The position numbers and the translations under genes are program-made. A stretch of 13,574 nucleotides of DNA from Promethearchaeota archaeon. Lineage in GTDB: Archaea > Asgardarchaeota > Lokiarchaeia > Sigyniarchaeales > SOKP01. Shown piece by piece: positions 2,935-13,574 of this stretch. The stretch is taken from NCBI GenBank assembly GCA_016926735.1, contig JAFGOA010000158.1, positions 1 to 13,574 of the forward strand, read 5' to 3'. Position 1 is the first letter of the stretch; each line of letters starts with the position of its first letter. The notes below the pieces were generated by a model. That model worked only from the letters and a program-made list of their open reading frames with translations, did not search any database and was not told the origin of the DNA.

Positions 2935-4905
2935 TTAATTATCCTCTTTTATGATATCAATGATAGAATTCATTTGATCAGATGTAAAATGATTTTGTTC
3001 TATTGCCCCTGAAGGACATGCAGGAGCACATGTCCCACATCCTTTACAGAGAACTGGATTAATTAAGGCTTTTTTTTTATAATCATCAAATTCTATTGCA
3101 TTATAAGGACATAAAGATTGACATATTTTACATCCTGAGCATAATTGATCTATAACAACGGTATAATATGGATCTATTTCTAATTCAGCTTTAGCCATTA
3201 GTATAGATGCCCCTGAAGCTGCTGCTTTTGCTTGAGCGACAGTATCGGGAATATCTTTAGGTCCTTGTGCAACTCCGGAAATAAATATACCTTCTAATAA
3301 TGTATCAATTGGTCTTAATTTAGGATGTGCTTCCATAAAGAATCCATCCGAGGATTTTTGAAGACATAATAAAGAACCTATTTTATCAGAATCTATATTA
3401 GGTTCTAATCCACATGATAAAATAAGTAGATCTACTTTTAATTCTATTAATTGTTGAGATAGAGTATCTTCAGATCTAATGATTATATTATTATTTTTAT
3501 CCTCTAATACTTCTGCAATTCGACCTCTTATATATCTAATTCCGTATTCTCTTTGAGAAGATTCATAAAATTCTTCATATTCTTTACCAAAAGTACGCAT
3601 ATCAATATAAAAGATAAAAATTTCACAATCAGGATATTTTTCTTTATACTGTCTTGCTTGTTTAATTGCATACATACAACATACTCTAGAACAATATCTA
3701 TTTCCTCCTTCTCTATAATACCTACTACCAACACATTGAAGAAAAGCAATTCTTTTTGGAACGAGTAAATCTGAGGGGCGTGCAGGATTTCCTGATAAAG
3801 GACCAATTGAACTTAATAATCTTTCCATTTGCAAACTATTTATAACATTTGGATATCTTCCATATCCATATTGTTTTAATTCTGTTGGATCATATAAATC
3901 CCAACCCGTTGCTACAATAATCGTTCCGACTTTAATATTAATAATTTCTGGTTTATCATTAAAATTTATTGCTTCTGTTTCGCATACATTTGGATCAGCA
4001 CAAATTCCACATTTAATACAATTTTCCATATCAATAGTATACTCACCGGGTATTGCTTGGGGAAAAGGAATATATATTGCTTTTCGGGAGGTCATTCCTA
4101 AATCAAATTCATTTTTGCATATCACTGGACATGGAGTTATACAAGATCCACAACCATTGCATTTTATTTGATCAACATAATGAGGTTTTTTCATTATTTT
4201 AATTTTAAAATTTCCTACATACCCATCTATTCCCACTATTTCTGAATAAGTCAATAAAGTTATATTTTGATTTCTAGCAATATCAACCATGCGTGGTGTT
4301 AAGATACATGCTGAACAATCCATTGTAGGAAATGTTTTATCTAATTGTGCCATATGACCTCCAATCGAAGGGTTCTTCTCTAATAAATATACTTTATATC
4401 CATTATTAGCTAAATCTAAAGCAGAATTTATACCAGCGATCCCTCCACCGATAACTAAACAAGAAGATTCAACTGAAACCTTTATTTTTTTTAATGGTTT
4501 TAATTTACTGGCTTTCGCTACAGCCATGTTAATATGATCTTTTGCTATTTCGAAAGCTCCTTCAGGATCATTTAAATTAACCCACGAGGAATGTTCTCTT
4601 ATATTAGCTTGTTCAAATAAGAAAGGATTAAAGCCTATATCTTCACATACTGATCGAAAAGTATATTCATGTAATCTTGGAGAACAAGCGGCTATTACAA
4701 CTCTATTAATTATACCCGATTCAATATCTGCTTTTATTAATTTTTGTCCAATATCAGAACACATAAATTTATAATCTTTAACAAGAACTACATTAGAGAT
4801 TTTTGAGGAATATTCTTTTAAAAGATCAATATTGATATTTCCAGAAATATTGGTTCCACAATGACAAATATACACTCCAATCTTTAGATTTTCTGTCTCT
4901 ACCAT
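2935..4905 (-). CDS. hdrA: Heterodisulfide reductase subunit A (FAD, Fe-S; electron-bifurcating type), 656 aa
   Basis: 'IGVYICHCG', 'FMCS', 'AACSP', Rossmann 'VIGGGIAG', 'GGHMAQLDKTFPTMDCSACILTP', inserted ferredoxin (CNGCGSC..PCP; CIKCGIC), 'FLQCVGSR', 'YCSRVCCMYAIK', 'GVAQGPKDIPD', C-terminal 2x[4Fe-4S] (CSGCKIC..LCP; CKGCGTC..ACP). Confidence 0.97.
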   Translation of the reverse strand: MVETENLKIGVYICHCGTNISGNINIDLLKEYSSKISNVVLVKDYKFMCSDIGQKLIKADIESGIINRVVIAACSPRLHEYTFRSVCEDIGFNPFLFEQANIREHSSWVNLNDPEGAFEIAKDHINMAVAKASKLKPLKKIKVSVESSCLVIGGGIAGINSALDLANNGYKVYLLEKNPSIGGHMAQLDKTFPTMDCSACILTPRMVDIARNQNITLLTYSEIVGIDGYVGNFKIKIMKKPHYVDQIKCNGCGSCITPCPVICKNEFDLGMTSRKAIYIPFPQAIPGEYTIDMENCIKCGICADPNVCETEAINFNDKPEIINIKVGTIIVATGWDLYDPTELKQYGYGRYPNVINSLQMERLLSSIGPLSGNPARPSDLLVPKRIAFLQCVGSRYYREGGNRYCSRVCCMYAIKQARQYKEKYPDCEIFIFYIDMRTFGKEYEEFYESSQREYGIRYIRGRIAEVLEDKNNNIIIRSEDTLSQQLIELKVDLLILSCGLEPNIDSDKIGSLLCLQKSSDGFFMEAHPKLRPIDTLLEGIFISGVAQGPKDIPDTVAQAKAAASGASILMAKAELEIDPYYTVVIDQLCSGCKICQSLCPYNAIEFDDYKKKALINPVLCKGCGTCAPACPSGAIEQNHFTSDQMNSIIDIIKEDN

Positions 4906-5020
4906 TATGAACTTGTTTATAAAAGATTATATTATCTAATTTTAAAAATATATAACTAATTGCATTAACTATATTTCTTCTTAGTTTTTTTAAATATATA
5001 TCCAAACTCTTTTTTTATAT

Positions 5021-5968
5021 TTATATTAATTGTTTTTTAATTAATTTTAAAAAAGGATCCAGTGAAATAAAAGGACTCACGTCTTTTATATTATGATTTT
5101 TTATTAAGCCTAATCGATTAGGATCTATCCCCATACTTAGACCGATAAGCTGCGTTATATAAATAACAGGAATGGTAAAAGGTTTTTTAATTTCATCTCT
5201 AAAAATATTAGATACTTCTTTTTGACCTAAATCAAATTGTAATTGGCAGAATGGACAACAAGTTATTATTATATCTGCTTTTGCTTTCCTTATATTGATT
5301 AGTTTTTCTTTAGTAAAATCAGCCGCTACTTCATTAAAACCACTTCTTAAAGCACCACCAGCACCACAACACAGATATTTATCTTTATAATCAATACTTT
5401 TTGCTCCCGTTAATTCAACAAGTTCATCTAAAAAAGTAGGAGATTCATATTCTTTATTCCATGGTCGTTTTATACTCGGTTTAATAATATGACATCCATA
5501 ATGCACAGCTACTTTTAGGTCTGAAAATTTATATTTAATATAGTCTTTAAGGTAGTCTAAACCTAAATCTTGATATAATACTTGAACTACATGTTTTGGT
5601 TCATATTTTCCTGTATATGACTTTCCGATTTTTCTAAGTTCCTCATTAACTTTCATTTTTAATTGAGGATCATGCTCAAGATCATACCAAACATCTCTTA
5701 ATGTACCATAGCATCCATTACAACCTGTAACAGGACTCACTTTTAATTCTTCTGAAAGGGATAAGTTCCTAGCAGCTATAACTAACCAAGTAAGAATATG
5801 AAAAGAACGGAATACACCTGGGGCAGGACAGCACGAAGCACCCGCTAAATCTATTAATTCAATATTAAGTTCTTCAAAAACATCTCTAATACTTCTTTCA
5901 ATCATTGGATATCGATTTGGAATAACACATCCCAAAAAAAATCCATATTTTAATGCAGATTTATTCAT
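5021..5968 (-). CDS. hdrB: Heterodisulfide reductase subunit B (two CCG domains), 315 aa
   Basis: 'FFLGCVIPNRYP', 'SCCPAPG', 'GCNGC', 'VHYGCH', 'CCGAGG', 'CCPFCQLQFD.GQ': the cysteine pattern of both CCG domains is intact. Confidence 0.96.
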   Translation of the reverse strand: MNKSALKYGFFLGCVIPNRYPMIERSIRDVFEELNIELIDLAGASCCPAPGVFRSFHILTWLVIAARNLSLSEELKVSPVTGCNGCYGTLRDVWYDLEHDPQLKMKVNEELRKIGKSYTGKYEPKHVVQVLYQDLGLDYLKDYIKYKFSDLKVAVHYGCHIIKPSIKRPWNKEYESPTFLDELVELTGAKSIDYKDKYLCCGAGGALRSGFNEVAADFTKEKLINIRKAKADIIITCCPFCQLQFDLGQKEVSNIFRDEIKKPFTIPVIYITQLIGLSMGIDPNRLGLIKNHNIKDVSPFISLDPFLKLIKKQLI

Positions 5969-5969
5969 T

Positions 5970-6557
5970 TCACTTTATATTTTTATTATCCTTTTTTTTT
6001 TTCTTTTTGATTTTATCTAAAAGTTGTTTAAATTTTACTTCTCTCATTAGTTTTTGACATTCCTTGACTGCTTCTGGGTAAGAATGGACAGTTGGGGGTA
6101 ATGAAGGTAAATCATAAGATTCCCTAAGTTCTCTCCATTTTTTATTATTTTCTCCTATAGCAGATATTGCATGACACGTTTTATAAAAAACATTATATGC
6201 TAAATCAAAATGGTTATCTAAGATATATCCTTCCTCAACAGCAATATTCCTTAATTTAATTATCATATCGGTTACAGGTATATTACGAGGACATCTTTCA
6301 TAACAATAATAACAAGTACTACAAAACCATATGTCTTTATCCTTTAAAATAGATTCATCTCCATCCAAGGCTTTTTTAATCGCCGATCTTACTCTTAATG
6401 CTGTACGTTTACCGGAAGGACAACTCCCAGTACATGTTCCGCAATTTATACATGCTCGTATCTCTTCTAAACCTGCATTAATAAATTTTTGAATGAGTTT
6501 GTTATTATAGGATTTACGAATGTCTTTTCTTAATACTTCTTCAGTTTTAGAATTCAT
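5970..6557 (-). CDS. hdrC: Heterodisulfide reductase subunit C (2x[4Fe-4S]), 195 aa
   Basis: 'CINCGTCTGSCPSG' and 'WFCSTCYYCYERCPR', plus 'LPPTVH.YPEA' as in methanogen-type HdrC; its TGA is 1 nt before the hdrB ATG (TGA-A-ATG). Confidence 0.96.
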   Translation of the reverse strand: MNSKTEEVLRKDIRKSYNNKLIQKFINAGLEEIRACINCGTCTGSCPSGKRTALRVRSAIKKALDGDESILKDKDIWFCSTCYYCYERCPRNIPVTDMIIKLRNIAVEEGYILDNHFDLAYNVFYKTCHAISAIGENNKKWRELRESYDLPSLPPTVHSYPEAVKECQKLMREVKFKQLLDKIKKKKKKDNKNIK

Positions 6558-6748: not shown

Positions 6749-6760
6749 AAAAAAAAAAAA
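6749..6760 (-). terminator. Oligo-T tract (T12 on - strand) after the beta-helix gene, candidate terminator
   Basis: A12 on + at 6749-6760, separated by 2 nt from the TAA stop (6765-6763); suggests hdrCBA is transcribed separately. Confidence 0.5.
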
Positions 6761-6762
6761 TT

Positions 6763-9700
6763 TTATAGATTTTTTAACATTTTTTCGATCAATAGAGTTC
6801 TTTCTTCAGGATTTAGATTTACTAAATCTTCAATAAGTATTCCTGTTTCTTCCATGGTTAATCCTAATAAATTAATTTTACGCATTAGTTCTGGATCTGA
6901 TAGTGTGGTAATAAAATTTTTCATTTCAGGTATTTCTGAGATTAATTTATCTGTTTCTAAGTACTCTTTTAATTCAGGGTTTTGGTTTACTATTGCTTGA
7001 TAGTTTTTATTGTGAGTAAGAGATATATCATTATTTAAATAACTTTCAGGTTTGATTAATTGCGTTTCAGATGGAGCCATATTACCTATATTTTGTGTTG
7101 ATATCTCTTCTGCTTCAGACGTACCCGAATATGTTCCTAATTTTGGTTCTTTTATTTTCTTATTTGGTTTACCTGAAAATTGTTTGATCAAACCTAACGC
7201 GATTAAACTAATTGCAGCAATAATTGCGAAAATTATTCCTATCATTGGGAGAATATTATCATCATCATTATTTCCTAGAGGTGTGGGTGGTTCTGGCTTT
7301 GTTGCAGGATTCATAAGAGGAAAATTATCAATTGAACCAGTAGTACCTAGAATATAATAAGGAGTATCCCCAATACTATTATTATCTAAGTCTTGACCCA
7401 TATAATCATCCCAGTAATTACCAAACTCACCATTATCCCAAGCATTATAATGTATTCCATTATCCATAGCATTAAATGAATTTCCAATGAATGAATTGTT
7501 GTATATTGTAGAATTTCCACATCTATTTAAAAATAATCCAATATTTACATTAGATTGTATTAGATTATAAGTAATTGTTATATTAAGATCTTCATATGTA
7601 TAAATACCATTTAGACCATTGTTCATTATTTGATTAGAGATTATTATATCGAAACTTGTTGAATTTGAACTCCAAATATAAATTCCATGGTTTTGATTTA
7701 GAGATATATTATTTTGTTCAATATTATTATATATTGACGATTGATTCACAGCAATACCGTTATTTAGATTATATTTTATATTATTTAAAGATATATTAAT
7801 CCAATCACTATAATATTCAACATAAATTCCATTATTATCGTTATAATATATTTCATTACTGTAAATTGTACAATTTTCACATCCCCATACATCGAGTCCA
7901 TGAGCACCATTAGATTGTATAAGATTATCAATTATAATTGCATCATTTATTTCCATGAGATAAATACCATCTAATCCATTATCTATTATTTGATTTTGAG
8001 TAATTGTATTATTATTAGTACCATAAATAGATCCCCAAAATTTTATTCCATGATTCTTATTTAACGATATATTATTAAGTATAAAGATAGTATTATAACA
8101 TTCTGTATCAAGACTAATACCATTATTGAGATTATATTTAATTGAATTCAAACGGATAATATTATTTTCAATCATATAACCATAATCAAAAGTTATACCA
8201 TTATTCGTGTTATTTTCTATAATATTACTGATAATTTTATTGTTAATACTAGTCTGAAAATATAATCCATAACGATAATTATAACTGATATTATTTAAGA
8301 AGAATTCATTATTAGAAGAAGTATAAAGTCCGATTCCTGATTTGATAGCAGTGAAATAGATATAATAATCTTCAATAGTAAATGCATTAAAACATATATT
8401 ATTATTTGATATTATGCTTCCATATAATTTCCCTGAACCAATTCCACCAAATGAATTATATTGTATTACATTGTTGCTAATGTTGAAATAATAGTTATTA
8501 ATGTTGTAATCATCATAAATAGAAATTCCATAACTATTATTATTCATTATACTATTTGTAATGTCAATATCAGAGCAATTATATACAAAAATCCCATCGT
8601 ATACATTAAATGAACTGATAATATTATCAATTGCTGCATTTATACAATAAAACAAGGAAATTCCAATCGAACCAAAAGAAACATCTTCATTACTAATTTC
8701 TATATTCGAACAATTATAAAGAATTATTTGCCCAGCATTAGAAAAATCTGTTGTGGTTAATCCATCTTGTTCTTTATAATAATATATAATTTTATTATTA
8801 AAATGATTTGTTAGATCAATTTGCTGAGTACCAATATATGTAGGATTTCCCCCAAATTGTAAAAAAATAGCACCATTACTCATATTATTGTCTGATATCA
8901 CATTATTTCCACTCTGTGCTATATTAATACTATGTAATTTATTGCTATGAATCTCATTGGATGATATATTAGCATATCCGCTATATTGAAGGATTATTCC
9001 ATTTTTATCACTATAATATATAGAATTTTCAATGATGGAAGTGTTATAACTATAACTTTGTATATTAATTCCACTTTCCCTACTTATATCTATAATATTT
9101 CCATATATTATAGTATTTTCACTGTAGGAATATATATATATTCCATTTAAGCCACTATTGTAAATTGTATTAAACGTGATGTTGTTTTTTAGACTATTAT
9201 CATAGATATATATTCCATTCAAGCCGCTATTATAGATTGAATTATTGATAATTTTATTGTCATTAGATTCATCCCCAAAAGAAATACCATGACCTTTATT
9301 ATTATAAATATCATTATGGAAAATAATATTGTTAACAGCATCATATTCTCCGTGAATTCCATCTTCTATATTACCATAAATAATATTATTACTCACATTT
9401 ACACCTTCTGTACCATAAACTAGACCAATCCCATTTCGAATATTAAATTTAAATTCATTATCGCTTATTATAATATCAAAATCGCTACCAAATACTTCAA
9501 TACCAGAATCAGTATTATTAAAAGCATAGTTATTTGTTATTGTAATATTATTTCCAGAGATTTGAAAACCATTATCACCATTAAAATTCGCAGTGCAATT
9601 ATTTATAATAGAATGAGATGATCCTATGCTTATTCCGTGATATCCATTATGATTCGCAGTTACATTAGTAATAGAGGTTCTATTGGAAGAATCACCAAGA

Positions 9701-11256
9701 TTTAATCCATATCCATTATTTTCACTGAGAATACTATCGTAGATTTTTCCAATTTGACTTTTATATATCTCTATAGCATAAGTTTCTTGATTTGTTACAG
9801 ATAGATCAGAAAGATCATAATTATCACACCAATATAACCTTATTCCTATATCTCCATTCGATACTGAAACATTCCTTATTATTGGATTATCACAAAAATG
9901 TAGGTGAATACCAACAGAGCAATCTTTGAAAATAAAATCTTCTAATATCGGATTAGAACAATTAACAAGTATAATTTGACCTGCATTCGGAAAATCGGCA
10001 CTTGTTAGTCCAGGTATTCTAAAGAAAAAATATATTGGTTTATCATTTATCGTATTATTCGTAGAAAGAATTAAATCATCAAGATTGTCATCCTCATTCC
10101 AAGCTCCAAAATCCCAATCTATTCCACTTCCATATAATGTATTTTCATATATCTCAATACCGCCGAAAGGATCAAAATAAATTCCATATTCGGTATTATT
10201 GATAAAAATATTTTTATTGATAATTATATTAAAGGAGCCACCTTCAGAGATTATACCAATTTGATTATAATCAATTGTATTTTCATATACATCAGTATCA
10301 TCAGAATGATCATCAAGATCAATTCCATAGTTATTATAGCTCACATTGTTATAGTAGATATCATTCCAACGACCATTACCTAGTAATCGAATACCATAAT
10401 TGTTATCTATAATTGTATTATTATATATCTCATTGTTAGAACACCGTTCATGTAAAAAAAGACCATTAGCACCATTACCTATTAGATCATTATATCTAAT
10501 GATGTTATTTTCACAATAATTATATAAATAAATAGCATGATCCTCGGAATCAATTATTCTGTTTCCTTCAATTAGATTATAGTTACAATTATTTTCAATT
10601 GATAATGTTGAAACTATAAGACCTGGATAATGACTATATATGCGTGTTAAATTATTATATAGAATCCGATTTTCATTACAATAATTTATGATTCTAATTC
10701 CATATCGGATAGCATAGGTTGTTCCTGTAATGGAATTATCTAATATTGTATTGTTATTGCAATTCGAATACAATAAAATACCATTTCTTTGATTACTAGA
10801 TAACAATGTATTATTTTTAATGATACCATTACTTGTATTAACAAGTTTAATCCCAGCATTCCAATCATCAGTATATCCCCAAAAGGCTGTATGAGAAAGG
10901 GTACAATTCTCTATTTTAAAAATTGCATTAGAATTTTGGATTTTTATACAATATTCAGTACCACCACCATCAATAATAAGATCTTCAATAACATAAGGGT
11001 TTCCCCAAGTTCCTTCACCGCTGCACCATGTTTGCGTTTTTGCCCATGACCAATTATGAGCTCCTACTCCAGTGGCAGTAGCATCAATAAAAATAGGGGA
11101 TTCTGTAGCTGAATTATTAATATTCCTATTTTCACTTTCTTCACTAATGTTTTGGAATTTGAAAATATTTTCAACACTAAATAGAATACTTGAAAATAAT
11201 AATATAGAAATTATAACTCCAAACCTAACTAATGGTTTCTGATTTGATTTTTTCAT
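6763..11256 (-). CDS. Large single-pass membrane protein with NosD/right-handed parallel beta-helix repeats, 1497 aa
   Basis: Signal-peptide-like N-terminus (MKKSNQK + hydrophobic stretch); cap 'SGEGTWGNPYVIEDLIID'; dozens of 22-24-aa 'N.I..N...GI.L' coils; NosD C-terminal motif 'WDNGEFGNYWDDY.G.D.D...IGDTPY.I...SID.FPL'; Pro-rich linker; TM helix ILPMIGIIFAIIAAISLIALGLI (~7254-7186) followed by a Lys-rich stop-transfer segment and a ~140-aa tail. Confidence 0.9.
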   Translation of the reverse strand: MKKSNQKPLVRFGVIISILLFSSILFSVENIFKFQNISEESENRNINNSATESPIFIDATATGVGAHNWSWAKTQTWCSGEGTWGNPYVIEDLIIDGGGTEYCIKIQNSNAIFKIENCTLSHTAFWGYTDDWNAGIKLVNTSNGIIKNNTLLSSNQRNGILLYSNCNNNTILDNSITGTTYAIRYGIRIINYCNENRILYNNLTRIYSHYPGLIVSTLSIENNCNYNLIEGNRIIDSEDHAIYLYNYCENNIIRYNDLIGNGANGLFLHERCSNNEIYNNTIIDNNYGIRLLGNGRWNDIYYNNVSYNNYGIDLDDHSDDTDVYENTIDYNQIGIISEGGSFNIIINKNIFINNTEYGIYFDPFGGIEIYENTLYGSGIDWDFGAWNEDDNLDDLILSTNNTINDKPIYFFFRIPGLTSADFPNAGQIILVNCSNPILEDFIFKDCSVGIHLHFCDNPIIRNVSVSNGDIGIRLYWCDNYDLSDLSVTNQETYAIEIYKSQIGKIYDSILSENNGYGLNLGDSSNRTSITNVTANHNGYHGISIGSSHSIINNCTANFNGDNGFQISGNNITITNNYAFNNTDSGIEVFGSDFDIIISDNEFKFNIRNGIGLVYGTEGVNVSNNIIYGNIEDGIHGEYDAVNNIIFHNDIYNNKGHGISFGDESNDNKIINNSIYNSGLNGIYIYDNSLKNNITFNTIYNSGLNGIYIYSYSENTIIYGNIIDISRESGINIQSYSYNTSIIENSIYYSDKNGIILQYSGYANISSNEIHSNKLHSINIAQSGNNVISDNNMSNGAIFLQFGGNPTYIGTQQIDLTNHFNNKIIYYYKEQDGLTTTDFSNAGQIILYNCSNIEISNEDVSFGSIGISLFYCINAAIDNIISSFNVYDGIFVYNCSDIDITNSIMNNNSYGISIYDDYNINNYYFNISNNVIQYNSFGGIGSGKLYGSIISNNNICFNAFTIEDYYIYFTAIKSGIGLYTSSNNEFFLNNISYNYRYGLYFQTSINNKIISNIIENNTNNGITFDYGYMIENNIIRLNSIKYNLNNGISLDTECYNTIFILNNISLNKNHGIKFWGSIYGTNNNTITQNQIIDNGLDGIYLMEINDAIIIDNLIQSNGAHGLDVWGCENCTIYSNEIYYNDNNGIYVEYYSDWINISLNNIKYNLNNGIAVNQSSIYNNIEQNNISLNQNHGIYIWSSNSTSFDIIISNQIMNNGLNGIYTYEDLNITITYNLIQSNVNIGLFLNRCGNSTIYNNSFIGNSFNAMDNGIHYNAWDNGEFGNYWDDYMGQDLDNNSIGDTPYYILGTTGSIDNFPLMNPATKPEPPTPLGNNDDDNILPMIGIIFAIIAAISLIALGLIKQFSGKPNKKIKEPKLGTYSGTSEAEEISTQNIGNMAPSETQLIKPESYLNNDISLTHNKNYQAIVNQNPELKEYLETDKLISEIPEMKNFITTLSDPELMRKINLLGLTMEETGILIEDLVNLNPEERTLLIEKMLKNL
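7490..8160 (-). repeat. Intragenic ~120-aa (360-363 nt) duplication of beta-helix coils; boundaries approximate
   Basis: 'IKYNLNNGI...NNISLNKNHGIKFW...NQIIDNGLDGIY...NLIQSN...CENCTIY' recurs as 'IKYNLNNGI...NNISLNQNHGIYIW...NQIMNNGLNGIY...NLIQSN...CGNSTIY'; DNA anchors AGATTATATT at 7766/8129 and TAGATTGTAT at 7551/7911. Confidence 0.8.
9131..9239 (-). repeat. Tandem 72-nt-period repeat encoding IYNSGLNGIYIY twice
   Basis: 9131-9167 vs 9203-9239 match at 32/37 nt; the five differences leave the 12-aa peptide unchanged. Confidence 0.85.
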
Positions 11257-11825
11257 TGAACACCCTCCATTTTTCTATTAGGATAGTATTTTTCGTCTTT
11301 CTTTTCTATCTTACTTTTAATAAAATGATATTTTTGTAATAAAGTTAAATGCCAAATAGTTTTAAAAGGACTGATATCTAATTCAGTAGAGATATCAAAT
11401 AAAGTTAGACCTGGATTTTCATTTATAAATCTAAGAATTTTTTTTCGTTGAAAATACGCCAACACTTTTTCATGAGTTAATTTAGTTCCGATCAATAATT
11501 CTCCTTTATTAACCATATTTTTAAATACTCCTTCGATATGTAATCTTTCTAATTTCTTATTGTCATTGTGCATTCTATGTAAGATTTTCTCTATTGAAAG
11601 AATTTCTTTATCTAAAATAGTTGAAATCTTGTTTTTCAAATCATTTTCGATTTGAACTAAAGTATAGCTTTTCATTTTAATTAAAAATTTTTTTAAATTT
11701 AAGTTACTAAAAAAATTATTATTTCGTCTTATAAAATCAATTGGAATATGATTGAAATTTTCCATTTTCTTTGTTTCAATTATTATTTCAGGTATTATTT
11801 CAATATTAGATTTAATTATATTCAT
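11253..11825 (-). CDS. Winged helix-turn-helix protein (COG3398-like), short paralog, 190 aa
   Basis: 'RKKILRFINENPGLTLFDISTELDISPFKTIWHLTLLQKYHFIKS...KYYP' is a wHTH; its TGA overlaps the beta-helix ATG (ATGA, 11256-11253). Confidence 0.8.
   Translation of the reverse strand: MNIIKSNIEIIPEIIIETKKMENFNHIPIDFIRRNNNFFSNLNLKKFLIKMKSYTLVQIENDLKNKISTILDKEILSIEKILHRMHNDNKKLERLHIEGVFKNMVNKGELLIGTKLTHEKVLAYFQRKKILRFINENPGLTLFDISTELDISPFKTIWHLTLLQKYHFIKSKIEKKDEKYYPNRKMEGVQ
11261..11268 (-). promoter_or_regulatory. Shine-Dalgarno-like GGAGGGTG for the beta-helix gene
   Basis: - strand reads GGAGGGTG-TTCA-ATG; conspicuous G-rich motif in AT-rich DNA, inside the last codons of the upstream gene. Confidence 0.65.
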
Positions 11826-11826
11826 T

Positions 11827-12507
11827 TTAAAGGGAATTCACGAGTTTTAAAATATTTTTATCGATATTTGAATTAAATATATATCCTTTTTGTTTATCTT
11901 CATTTATTTTTTTTATCAAATCTAAATTTACTAATAACTCCAAATATTTTTTTAGAGTATTATAATGCATTTGTAAAGATTCTGATAAAAGTGTAGGTTT
12001 CATCGGTAGATTTTGCTCTTTTAAAAAATCTAAAATAATTTTAACTTTATCATTTCTTAGACTAATATTTAAGACATCGAATTTTGGATTGGAATTATAA
12101 GGAAAGAATGTTTTTTGAGCCTCATATTTCACAGATCTAATAAATTTAAAGCTAGATAATAATTCAAGATGCCATAGAGCTCTATTAGCTCCTATATCGA
12201 AATATATCATAATTTGATTTATATTTATCCCAGGATTTTGAATTATAAGATTATTAATTTCATTCCTAATCGGAATTTTTAAGATATCTTCTTTTATTAA
12301 TTTCTTTCCGATTAATATTTTCTGATTTTTTATAAATTTTTTTATAATAAGTTCTATTTTATTTCTATTAAAATCGGGATTTGATTTTAACCTATTAGCA
12401 ACAAAGTCAATTAAATCTTTAAGTTCTATTATTGGTTTTTTTTTTGTATATTCTTTTACCAATTGATATAATTCTTTTTCATCTTTGTCACTAAAAATTT
12501 TTATCAT
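11827..12507 (-). CDS. Multi-domain winged helix-turn-helix transcriptional regulator (COG3398-like), 226 aa
   Basis: wHTH 'RNEINNLIIQNPGININQI...GANRALWHLELLSSFKFIRS' and a second wHTH 'KIILDFLKEQNLPMKPTLLSESLQMHYNTLKKYLELLVNLDLIKK'; stop is 1 nt before the next ATG (TAA-A-ATG). Confidence 0.85.
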   Translation of the reverse strand: MIKIFSDKDEKELYQLVKEYTKKKPIIELKDLIDFVANRLKSNPDFNRNKIELIIKKFIKNQKILIGKKLIKEDILKIPIRNEINNLIIQNPGININQIMIYFDIGANRALWHLELLSSFKFIRSVKYEAQKTFFPYNSNPKFDVLNISLRNDKVKIILDFLKEQNLPMKPTLLSESLQMHYNTLKKYLELLVNLDLIKKINEDKQKGYIFNSNIDKNILKLVNSL

Positions 12508-12563
12508 TTTTGCTATTTTATATTAATTAAAGAATTAAATTTTCAAACTATACATCTAAAGAT

Positions 12564-12584
12564 AAGTATTTATTACCAATACTT
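12564..12584. promoter_or_regulatory. Perfect 7-7-7 palindrome AAGTATT-N7-AATACTT, candidate operator
   Basis: AAGTATT 12564-12570 and AATACTT 12578-12584, directly downstream (on -) of the candidate TATA box. Confidence 0.45.
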
Positions 12585-12585
12585 C

Positions 12586-12599
12586 TTATAAATTTTTTT
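12586..12599 (-). promoter_or_regulatory. Candidate BRE + TATA box for the wHTH-wHTH-beta-helix operon
   Basis: - strand AAAAAAA-TTTATAA (TATA 12592-12586, preceded by a purine run), ~80 nt upstream of ATG 12507. Other TATA-like words exist nearby. Confidence 0.4.
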
Positions 12600-12705: not shown

Positions 12706-13491
12706 CCGTGAGCTAGTAAAATTCATTTTTTTTTGTATAAATTATCTCATCCAAGTTCATTCCTCAACGATTGTTGGCTCATCGGCTAAAATTGAGGGTT
12801 AATTTTAAAAGTGACGCATTATTGTGTTAAACATGACAATTTTCTACAAGAAAAGTCTGCCGGTTTCAGCCGGGTTTAATAAAATTAATCCCCAATGCAT
12901 TAATCTTCAATTACTTATAGATATTTTGGAAATAATTCGAACTATAGTTAAGGAAGAACTGCCCCAAAAAAGAAGTGGCTATCCTTACGAGGTATTTGTA
13001 GTATATCAAGCATTCGTGCAGTTATTGCAACGCTCCCCTGAAAAGACCGGCGAATGGCTGAATGAAGCATGTAAGCAAGCGGGATATTCCTTTCAAGAAC
13101 ACGAAACTATGGAATTTTCGAATGGTAAGCAAAGATGATTTTTTCCGGACCAACCAGCATTATCTCGTTGTCTGAAACAAAAGAAGGCGCTGGCTTGTAC
13201 AGAAGCATTTTGGAACCATGTATTATTTGCGCACTTTTTAATCTTAAGACGCCTTGACATCATCAATTCTGACGTTATCCTAATTGCGAATTACACTGAA
13301 GAAAAATGCCAGAAGAATAAAGACGATCCTTACTGTTTTGGAACGAAAGAAGGCAAGACCAAGCATAAAACGCTCGCTTTTTCGGTGATTTCAAATGGGT
13401 TAGATCAGGTAATTGCAAACTTCAAGATCTACAAGCGTCAGGACAAGCTTCCACTTTTCGAAAAAGTCTTGGGTCTGCTAGGTTCTCACGC
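12706..13491 (+). mobile_element. Remnant insertion sequence (ISH3/IS4-like DDE); boundaries approximate
   Basis: GC jump: hand counts give 25/60 and 30/60 GC in the lines starting at 12961 and 13021 versus 8/60 at 12301; contains a transposase-like frame; no clean target-site duplication found. Confidence 0.6.
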
Positions 13492-13564
13492 ATATTATAA
13501 AATAAGACAATGTTGGACATTTATCTTATTTGAGTGTTCCGATGGTTGCGTCCTCGGAAGTTAA
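12833..13564 (+). pseudogene. DDE transposase pseudogene (ISH3/IS4-like), interrupted by TGA at 13136-13138 and truncated
   Basis: The frame stays open 141 codons past the TGA to TAA 13562-13564: 'KQR*FFPDQPALSRCL...DVILIANYTEE...FGTKEGKTKHKTLAFSVISNG...LFEKVLGLLGSH'. PDxxxLSR and hydrophobic-strand-[D]xT are IS4/IS5/ISH3-type motifs. ATG 12833 is preferred over GTG 12824. Family assignment is from motif recall only. Confidence 0.7.
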
Positions 13565-13574
13565 CAAGCAGAAG

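Follow-up and report, generated by a model that had tools for sequence, protein, structure and literature searches.

Introduction

How signals from outside the cell reach the genes is, to our knowledge, essentially unknown in Asgard archaea. This question is raised in a concrete form by a locus of a Promethearchaeota archaeon of the class Lokiarchaeia (contig JAFGOA010000158.1, assembly GCA_016926735.1), in which three minus-strand genes encode a winged-helix regulator of 226 amino acids (aa), a short paralogue of this regulator and a large surface protein, here termed the receptor. The window analysed here is the entire contig of 13,574 nt (13.6 kb), and the source genome features 3.88 Mb and a GC content of 26%. 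A preliminary description of this DNA had proposed that the cytoplasmic part of the receptor holds the winged-helix proteins and releases them upon ligand binding or proteolysis. The present analysis points to a conserved tail domain which travels with the regulator, and to a promoter element which the regulator may read.

The Receptor and Its Cytoplasmic Tail

Hydropathy places hydrophobic segments only at residues 10-28 and 1339-1357 of the receptor, with a beta-helix ectodomain carrying 42 N-glycosylation sequons and a cytoplasmic part of 140 aa; the type I topology of the preliminary description is thereby confirmed. Pfam assigned Beta_helix (E 1e-85) and NosD (E 5e-73), with 285 bits vs. 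a cut-off of 25.9 for PF13229 and 245 vs. 23.6 for PF05048. The receptor stays below the thresholds of the NosD maturation protein (TIGR04247; 99.9 bits, below 300), with no nos genes in the window, and of the AlgG mannuronan epimerase (NF038177; 29.1 bits, below 700). The nearest solved relative by sequence is likewise an AlgG epimerase (E 1e-8), over just 140 of 1271 residues. As described before, kinases and receivers are absent: Pfam and NCBIfam (E <= 0.1) revealed no histidine kinase or receiver in the three proteins, which places them outside the two-component systems.

Nine beta-helix paralogues are encoded in the genome, four of which carry the tail and five of which end in a short anchor, in agreement with the earlier remark that a simple anchor needs few cytoplasmic residues. 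The receptor gave no match to Loki-CTERM (NF033507, cut-off 19.9), and two of the tail-less paralogues score 17.3 and 16.3 for this family.

The last ~77 aa of the receptor are predicted to be helical and to end in a C-terminal three-helix bundle (predicted local distance difference test, pLDDT, 83). Tails are acidic overall, with 44 of 61 being negative and that of the window featuring a net charge of -7. In the source genome, the tail profile detected 13 domains in 12 proteins, i.e., 10 membrane proteins and 2 soluble proteins consisting of the tail only. The profile matches 148 of the 151 genomes of the class; of the 156 genomes that represent families f8-f32 in a phylum sample, only 3 gave matches, and these were weak. 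The first profile had drifted to a regulator and to a soluble protein of 334 aa, and both rows were removed. At E <= 0.001, 439 representatives (50% identity) were obtained. Among the best 150 of these 439, the tail is C-terminal in 134 and is preceded by a transmembrane (TM) segment in 101 of the 109 having room for one, the linker from TM segment to tail spanning ~23 to 168 aa; 28 of the 150 are short TM-less proteins, some of them perhaps fragments. Besides, tandem tails occur.

No Pfam family was common to more than 1 of 13 tail members, the best match among PDB sequences had an E of 0.64, Foldseek returned nothing at E <= 0.001, VIA-align reached a best Z of 4.5 with a generic three-helix bundle, and the ESM Atlas offered no usable match. 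Judged by these searches and the predicted structure, the tail appears to be a helical domain without assignable family or fold, although this is no proof of a novel fold.

Genes for soluble proteins of 82-96 aa that consist of the tail alone were found at L010:385-675 and L011:132-380 (source genome), L055:8739-8999 and L023:2052-2285. Two such genes sit 3' of element-led surface-protein genes, and their products are possible inhibitors. As a further observation, a tail receptor of more than 2800 aa without adjoining regulator (L089:2-8473, genome G025) is followed by a small-GTPase-like gene on the opposite strand.

The Winged-Helix Regulator and Its Paralogues

The preliminary description had read the 226-aa protein as a winged helix-turn-helix protein. 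The class holds, the number of units does not: AlphaFold2 (pLDDT 92) predicts three winged-helix-type units, namely WH1 (~1-66), a three-helix unit with a vestigial wing, and the clear winged helices WH2 (~67-140) and WH3 (~141-222). The units are basic, and the recognition-helix residues form the most conserved columns of the alignment. Pfam assigned HTH_45 (E 1e-5) and weakly HTH_HVO_0163_N, and the Atlas neighbours of the regulator are HTH_24 clusters with Promethearchaeota as commonest source. The short paralogue comprises WH1 and WH2, lacks WH3, and matches HTH_24 (E 6e-6). The three-unit regulator is the predicted family-wide tail partner, and the short protein is a genus-level add-on and a candidate feedback competitor or adaptor.

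Regarding WH1-bearing proteins, the source genome encodes 16: one is TM-fused, eight lie beside tail receptors and seven beside proteins with 5-6 TM segments, so that all 15 free ones adjoin a membrane protein. The seven latter (L013-L019) are three-unit regulators, each adjoining a multi-TM protein of 428-438 aa, and represent a second receptor class with the same regulator design; Pfam gave nothing for the two multi-TM proteins scanned. A surface protein of 4460 aa (G000:C153:14186-27568) is flanked by a pair of tail receptor and regulator on one side and by a pair of multi-TM protein and regulator on the other.

Pairing of Tail and Regulator

Linkage of the tail to the winged-helix proteins in other genomes was the survey by which the preliminary description had proposed to be refuted. 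The proposal passed this test: in 12 further genomes the linkage proved to be tight, whichever of the two genes came first and however unrelated the ectodomains were. Counting regulator matches at E <= 1e-45 outside the source genome (n=39) and tails on the same strand within 6 kb, 32 of 39 regulators have a tail neighbour vs. 0.5 expected, 24 of them tail-first and 8 regulator-first. The seven unlinked regulators comprise three frames of 378-381 aa resembling the TM fusion, three at contig ends, where the contig stops in or near the neighbouring gene, and a partnerless one in G029 on a contig of 3.5 kb. A related-locus search queried with the window regulator found nothing. In the source genome, a regulator adjoins 9 of 10 tail-bearing membrane proteins, and at further best-tail loci 13 of 17. 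Moreover, a polytopic tail subfamily has its own regulator subfamily (11 loci).

On their outer side, the 31 partners scanned carry, among others, beta-helix, GH9 with CBM3 and FN3, family-5 solute-binding, WD40 and Kelch domains, with many being family-less, and one partner carries a C-terminal ubiquitin fusion. Thus, the beta-helix is one interchangeable head among several ectodomains. In the one GH9 head that was aligned, two residues of Cel9G are missing, the second Asp and the acid Glu, which we take to be catalytic carboxylates; the sequence of this head fits sensing rather than catalysis. GH9-FN3 receptors without DAGD motif were seen at L005, L053 and L058, two of them with a short two-unit regulator as partner and element variants upstream and downstream.

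The trees of tail and regulator agree across 30 pairs (Mantel rho 0.66, 0/999; nearest neighbour identical in 22 of 30). Both hold the same 11-row clade (support 100/99 and 100/100), which contains the window and all regulator-first loci of the set, and in both, receptors with solute-binding and beta-helix heads are sisters. Ectodomains were swapped while the trees of tail and regulator kept agreeing. Partial correlations by domain (WH1 0.31, WH2 0.51, WH3 0.12) are too weak to name a contact domain. With high confidence, tail and regulator can be regarded as functionally paired.

The Upstream Element and Its Candidate Regulon

The ~150-nt gap between regulator and short paralogue harbours a conserved element (Table 1). 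All five loci aligned, two of which are distant paralogues, show this element with a TATA-like box 6 nt further on. The short paralogue starts 86 nt from the element, compared to 79-84 nt in relatives, and the window element is the third-best site in the genome. A matrix built from the sites of other genomes found 24 matches in the source genome vs. 2-8 with shuffled matrices. With the TATA region included, 40 sites were obtained, the 21 best of which are all intergenic in a genome that is 84% coding, with the window site lying in the start of an over-long open reading frame (ORF); shuffled matrices gave 5-24 matches at the same low threshold. A gene follows within 240 nt at 15 of these 21 sites, and of these genes 12 encode a protein with a hydrophobic segment at the N-terminus, a feature of 705 of 3326 in the background, two are short paralogues and one encodes a zinc-ribbon protein, about half of these promoters having orthologues among the matrix seeds. 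Tail receptors and tail-less beta-helix proteins (three each), two clostripain-family proteins and a DUF285 protein are among the products of these element-led genes.

The exact pattern occurs 12 times in the source genome (reversed control 0), 12 times in G001 and 7 in G002, both congeners, 2 in G013, 1 in G016 and 0 in G004; in 10 genomes whose listed regulators lie outside the clade or which have none, 0 sites were found. Both sites of G013 flank its regulator, at the promoters of the tail gene and of a divergent operon. Archaeal activators bind directly upstream of the BRE (B recognition element) and TATA box (PMC5937170), and because the element holds the same position, its second half-site ending 6 nt before the TATA box, it is read as an activator-type site at a fixed distance, as known from the activator TFB-RF1. 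The regulator is likely to recognise the element as its operator.

In two further genomes, tandem arrays of related secreted-protein genes (G001:C110 and G002:C214, L108-L118) carry an own element copy at nearly every gene. Small unannotated ORFs, of 59-70 aa where measured, likewise follow the element, at L005:5037-5215, L130, L131 and L132 of the source genome as well as at L091, L097, L100 and L102 of G002. Being conserved between congeners, these are possible further regulon members missed by length filters.

A Ubiquitin-Like Operon in Relatives

Elsewhere in the family, in genera other than that of the window, the gene behind the regulator encodes a protein of 262-269 aa, which consists of an N-terminal TM region, the tail and a ubiquitin domain (PF00240). 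The divergent operon encodes a ubiquitin-like tag ending in Ala-Gly and E1-, E2-, JAMM- and RING-like proteins, labels that rest on sequence motifs rather than on a scan for families. Regulator and tail gene were present in 43 of 44 loci examined. A matrix trained solely on the genus of the window located the element at both promoters of all 43 loci, namely that of the tail gene, at a distance of 79-84 nt, and that of the divergent operon, with 0 of 43 in the wrong-strand control of each promoter; the 43 loci are those of close kin, whose regulators are 60-100% identical. The source genome keeps the ubiquitin-like operon without regulator, tail gene or element there. At L134:8607-15243 (G013), L065, L075 and L137-L179, the regulator and the TM-tail-ubiquitin gene lie between two Ala-Gly ubiquitin-like genes and the operon, with the element at both promoters.

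Proposed Mechanism and Alternatives

What is observed are the gene layout, the tail family and its linkage to the regulator, the agreement of the trees, the exchange of ectodomains and an element which stands at a fixed position before the genes listed above; the following mechanism would connect these observations. The receptor tail would bind the neighbouring three-unit regulator, probably via WH1/WH2, and keep it at the membrane in an inactive state. Release would follow when the beta-helix senses a cue from outside, and the freed regulator would then bind the element beside the TATA box, with WH2 and WH3 presumably placed on half-sites one helical turn apart, and activate rather than repress surface-protein genes including that of the receptor. 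The short paralogue gene would be activated as well, and its product would damp the response, so that receptor and short paralogue, both expressed from the element promoter, could close a negative loop. Least certain are the trigger, which might be a ligand-driven shape change or proteolysis, and the ligand, for which a polysaccharide or glycan is the default in case of a beta-helix. Direct binding of the regulator by the tail is probable. The full kinase-free hold-and-release model, an anti-activator/activator system and the reading we favour, appears about evenly balanced between holding and failing.

Several points weigh against this model. Neighbouring genes are co-inherited and kin are not independent, hence linkage and tree congruence show stable pairing, not contact. 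Likewise, the charge complementarity of acidic tail and basic units is common to any DNA-binding protein. No tail-regulator fusion was found among the best 150 of the 439 tail proteins nor in a search of longer proteins, which was weak, and no conserved juxtamembrane or intramembrane cleavage site was identified. One of 10 tail receptors in the source genome and 4 of 17 best-tail loci have no adjoining regulator. As regards the element, G004 has the regulator clade yet no exact site, variants precede some tail-first receptors, so that the match of clade and element is not strict, and the exact pattern was derived from genomes where it scores. Finally, the signal for a weak BRE is slight: 339 generic TATA boxes carry an A at position -3 in 49% of cases, and 12 sites of the element do so in 2.

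The alternative which survives best is a split transmembrane regulator, in which the regulator never leaves the tail and works on the DNA while membrane-bound, with receptor clustering or a shape change as the switch; such a regulator would be the non-covalent counterpart of a fused form. The receptor contains no helix-turn-helix domain and the regulators no TM segment, thus the window holds no one-chain transmembrane regulator; elsewhere in the genome, paralogues are fused in this manner (ectodomain-TM-WH2-WH3, without WH1). One propeller repeat head occurs both split, with tail and free regulator, and TM-fused to WH2-WH3. Fused rows mostly align only from WH2 onward, and in one orthologous group, the TM segment is fused directly to WH1-WH2-WH3. 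Moreover, membrane-bound regulators are widespread in archaea (PMC10269533). Soluble tail-only proteins and tandem tails fit titration better than tethering, however, and a single regulator clade has up to 12 exact sites to serve, spread over the genome, which renders permanent docking unlikely, though worth keeping in mind.

Considerably less credit can be given to two further alternatives, which we rate alike. In the first, a Notch-like co-activation, the tail would be cut from the membrane and activate the regulator on the DNA in a positive feedback, with soluble tail genes as amplifiers. The compact, autonomous and acidic nature of the tail, its C-terminal position in 134 of the best 150, the tail genes 3' of element-led genes at two loci and the tail-ubiquitin fusion, which hints at proteolytic control, are in favour of this idea; the missing cleavage signature, linkers of widely differing length and the general experience that an acidic partner more often blocks a basic DNA-binding protein make it improbable. 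In the second, there is no signalling link at all: the regulator merely activates neighbouring surface genes, the tail serves sorting, oligomerisation or turnover, and both travel together as a cassette. That the element precedes many tail-less surface proteins and that some tail proteins have no regulator neighbour agree with such a reading. Nevertheless, the pairing holds in both gene orders, across subfamilies and through ectodomain replacement, and none of the five beta-helix paralogues without tail turned up as a neighbour of a regulator. Very improbable is a role of the winged-helix proteins as protein adaptors of the ESCRT-II or RPC34 kind, joining membrane cargo to the ubiquitin-like system while another factor reads the element: the top Foldseek matches of the regulator are indeed several unrelated multi-winged-helix scaffolds (Pol III subunits, SelB, TFIIIC, ESCRT-II; E 2e-5 to 3e-3, all with a TM-score of just 0.2-0.3) and the widespread locus adjoins E1-, E2- and JAMM-like genes, but the sequence families are helix-turn-helix regulators with the recognition helix most conserved, and the element tracks presence and loss of the regulator.

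Returning to the hold-and-release model, its widest form would be that Lokiarchaeia own a kinase-free pathway from receptor to transcription, built of tail and triple winged-helix protein, with swappable sensors and a definable operator, and that its most widespread form, in which the tail is fused to ubiquitin and the E1/E2/JAMM/RING operon would be under the same operator, controls, and perhaps is controlled by, the ubiquitin-like system. We consider this extension possible but rather doubtful. If true, membrane signalling would directly steer the Asgard ubiquitin-like system, in a prokaryotic parallel of Notch- or NF-kB-like release of a transcription factor from a receptor. The candidate operator before the ubiquitin-like conjugation operon in many relatives would then be a first handle on when Asgard cells induce that system. 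Furthermore, the locus offers a small complete set, i.e., a 77-aa tail, a 226-aa regulator, a 20-bp candidate operator and a predicted regulon, which is testable with recombinant proteins and in vitro transcription and requires no culture of the organism.

Layout of the Locus and Other Features

The features of the window are compiled in Table 1.

Table 1. Features of the locus on the 13,574-nt window.
Feature	Position	Strand	Basis
A-rich run and TATA box (TTTATAAG), likely the regulator's own promoter	12585..12598	minus	sequence; function inferred
Full-length regulator gene, 226 aa	12507-11827	minus	ORF
Second ORF by first ATG, 190 aa ('wHTH190')	11825-11253	minus	ORF
In-frame 50-codon extension, most likely non-coding spacer	11676..11825	minus	stops, no ATG in G001 and G002 orthologues
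Element AAAATTTCA-N7-TCCA, two T-Y-C-A half-sites 11 bp apart, candidate operator	11742..11761	minus	conservation
TATA box 6 nt 3' of element, promoter of short paralogue and receptor unit	11728..11735	minus	sequence, alignment
Short paralogue, 140 aa from Met51	11253..11675	minus	orthologues of 141 aa, same Met start
GGAGG ribosome-binding site and ATGA stop/start overlap, short paralogue/receptor	11253..11268	minus	sequence
Gene of the candidate receptor, 1497 aa, single-pass surface protein	6763..11256	minus	ORF, Pfam, hydropathy, orthologues
Right-handed beta-helix ectodomain, ~residues 50-1320	7297..11109	minus	Pfam Beta_helix, NosD
Transmembrane helix, residues 1339-1357	7186..7242	minus	hydropathy
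Conserved cytoplasmic tail domain, residues ~1421-1497	6766..6996	minus	alignments, structure prediction
T12 tract, likely terminator before hdrC	6749..6760	minus	sequence; function inferred

Much of the layout given in the preliminary description was recovered, with three co-oriented ORFs at their places, the ATGA overlap (11256-11253) with its GGAGG (11268-11264), the TATA box (12592-12585, TTTATAAG) 5' of the full-length regulator and the T12 tract (6760-6749), which starts 3 nt past the receptor stop. Archaeal transcription ends at oligo-T tracts, and for this reason the T12 tract is read as a likely terminator. The junction of short paralogue and receptor is also abutting or overlapping in G001 and G002, and the G002 orthologue keeps TATA box and A-run 5' of the regulator.

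Other claims have to be revised. The upstream palindrome exists as a 7-bp inverted repeat (12564-12584) and was rejected as a meaningful feature; it is absent from the G002 orthologue, and such repeats are common in spacers this rich in AT, where three stretches of 241-301 nt contained 6, 12 and 21 pairs. The protein listed as 'wHTH190' most likely has 140 aa, starting at Met51 (11675), and its own promoter. In the orthologous loci of G001 (regulator 229 aa, short protein 141 aa, receptor 1507 aa, hdrCBA) and G002 (226 aa, 141 aa, receptor cut at the contig end), the short proteins start at the Met corresponding to residue 51. In G001, the preceding 50-codon region is interrupted by many stops and offers no start; in G002, it lacks an ATG and is broken by one stop and by gaps that disrupt the frame. 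Nothing can be learned here from G003, the closest relative, whose contig ends 63 nt upstream, and its apparent 161-aa frame was discarded as evidence for a long form on the same ground. An open frame of 50 codons is uncommon by chance in DNA this AT-rich, so that a minor or strain-specific long form may exist. The letters of the TAA-A-ATG junction are present (11829-11823); since the first 50 codons are closed in the orthologues and hold element and TATA box, the junction is not a conserved coupling. A single three-gene translationally coupled operon is less likely than a separately promoted regulator and a two-gene unit of short paralogue and receptor behind the conserved element.

The genes hdrC, hdrB and hdrA (2935-6557, minus strand) lie 3' of the receptor, and this order and the adjoining receptor orthologue are common to G001, G002 and G003. 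A link to hdrCBA was considered and rejected: the synteny holds within the genus, but paralogous modules lie in unrelated contexts and the T12 tract stands in between. Additional neighbours are a DUF255 protein and a nitroreductase. At 12824-13574 (plus strand), the GC content rises up to 40%, and a transposase-like frame is broken by a TGA (13136-13138) and continues in the same frame. It gave no family match, one 40-nt piece of it being repeated at another contig end; this region is probably an insertion-sequence remnant at the contig end.

Comparison With Known Systems

A search confined to the open literature found no description of tail, regulator or element. With regard to its ectodomain, the receptor has the same fold as NosD-type parallel beta-helix proteins (PF05048, PF13229) and Loki-CTERM-anchored proteins, and differs from anchored surface proteins of the latter type in carrying the tail, whereas its tail-less paralogues have a short anchor.

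In Pyrococcus furiosus, the activator TFB-RF1 (PF1088) is likewise encoded with a membrane protein, PF1089, and activates its own and a second operon from a site upstream of a weak BRE/TATA, similar to the placement of the element here (PMC5937170). Its site is a 13-nt palindrome, in contrast to the direct repeat with 11-bp period of the window, and PF1089 has four TM segments and is not known to carry an ectodomain or a tail. Regulators of the ToxR/CadC type also bring outside information to a DNA-binding domain at the membrane (PMC10269533). They do so in one chain, whereas sensor and DNA-binding chain are separate here, with a dedicated tail and the extra WH1. The main text of PMC10269533 contains neither 'Asgard' nor 'Lokiarch' (0 occurrences).

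The closest parallel in design is offered by RsgI/SigI of Clostridium (Acetivibrio) thermocellum (PMC6582324). Both systems comprise many paralogous, kinase-free pairs per genome, each with a single-pass protein, a variable outer sensor, a conserved small inner domain and an adjoining cognate transcription factor; secreted or surface proteins are the targets of RsgI/SigI and the predicted targets here. Several cognate pairs of sensor and factor with variable outer domains were indeed found here. The inner domain of RsgI is an N-terminal beta-barrel and its partner a sigma factor (PMC6582324), whereas the tail is C-terminal and all-helical, with no homology seen, and is paired with a winged-helix protein of three units that would act at TBP/TFB promoters; by partner and inner domain, the pairs described here are not members of RsgI/SigI. 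Binding and release were demonstrated for RsgI (PMC6582324) and are predicted from sequence for the receptor. The logic of a membrane-held transcription factor is known from bacteria, while the parts found in this Lokiarchaeia genome appear to be unrelated and come with a candidate operator.

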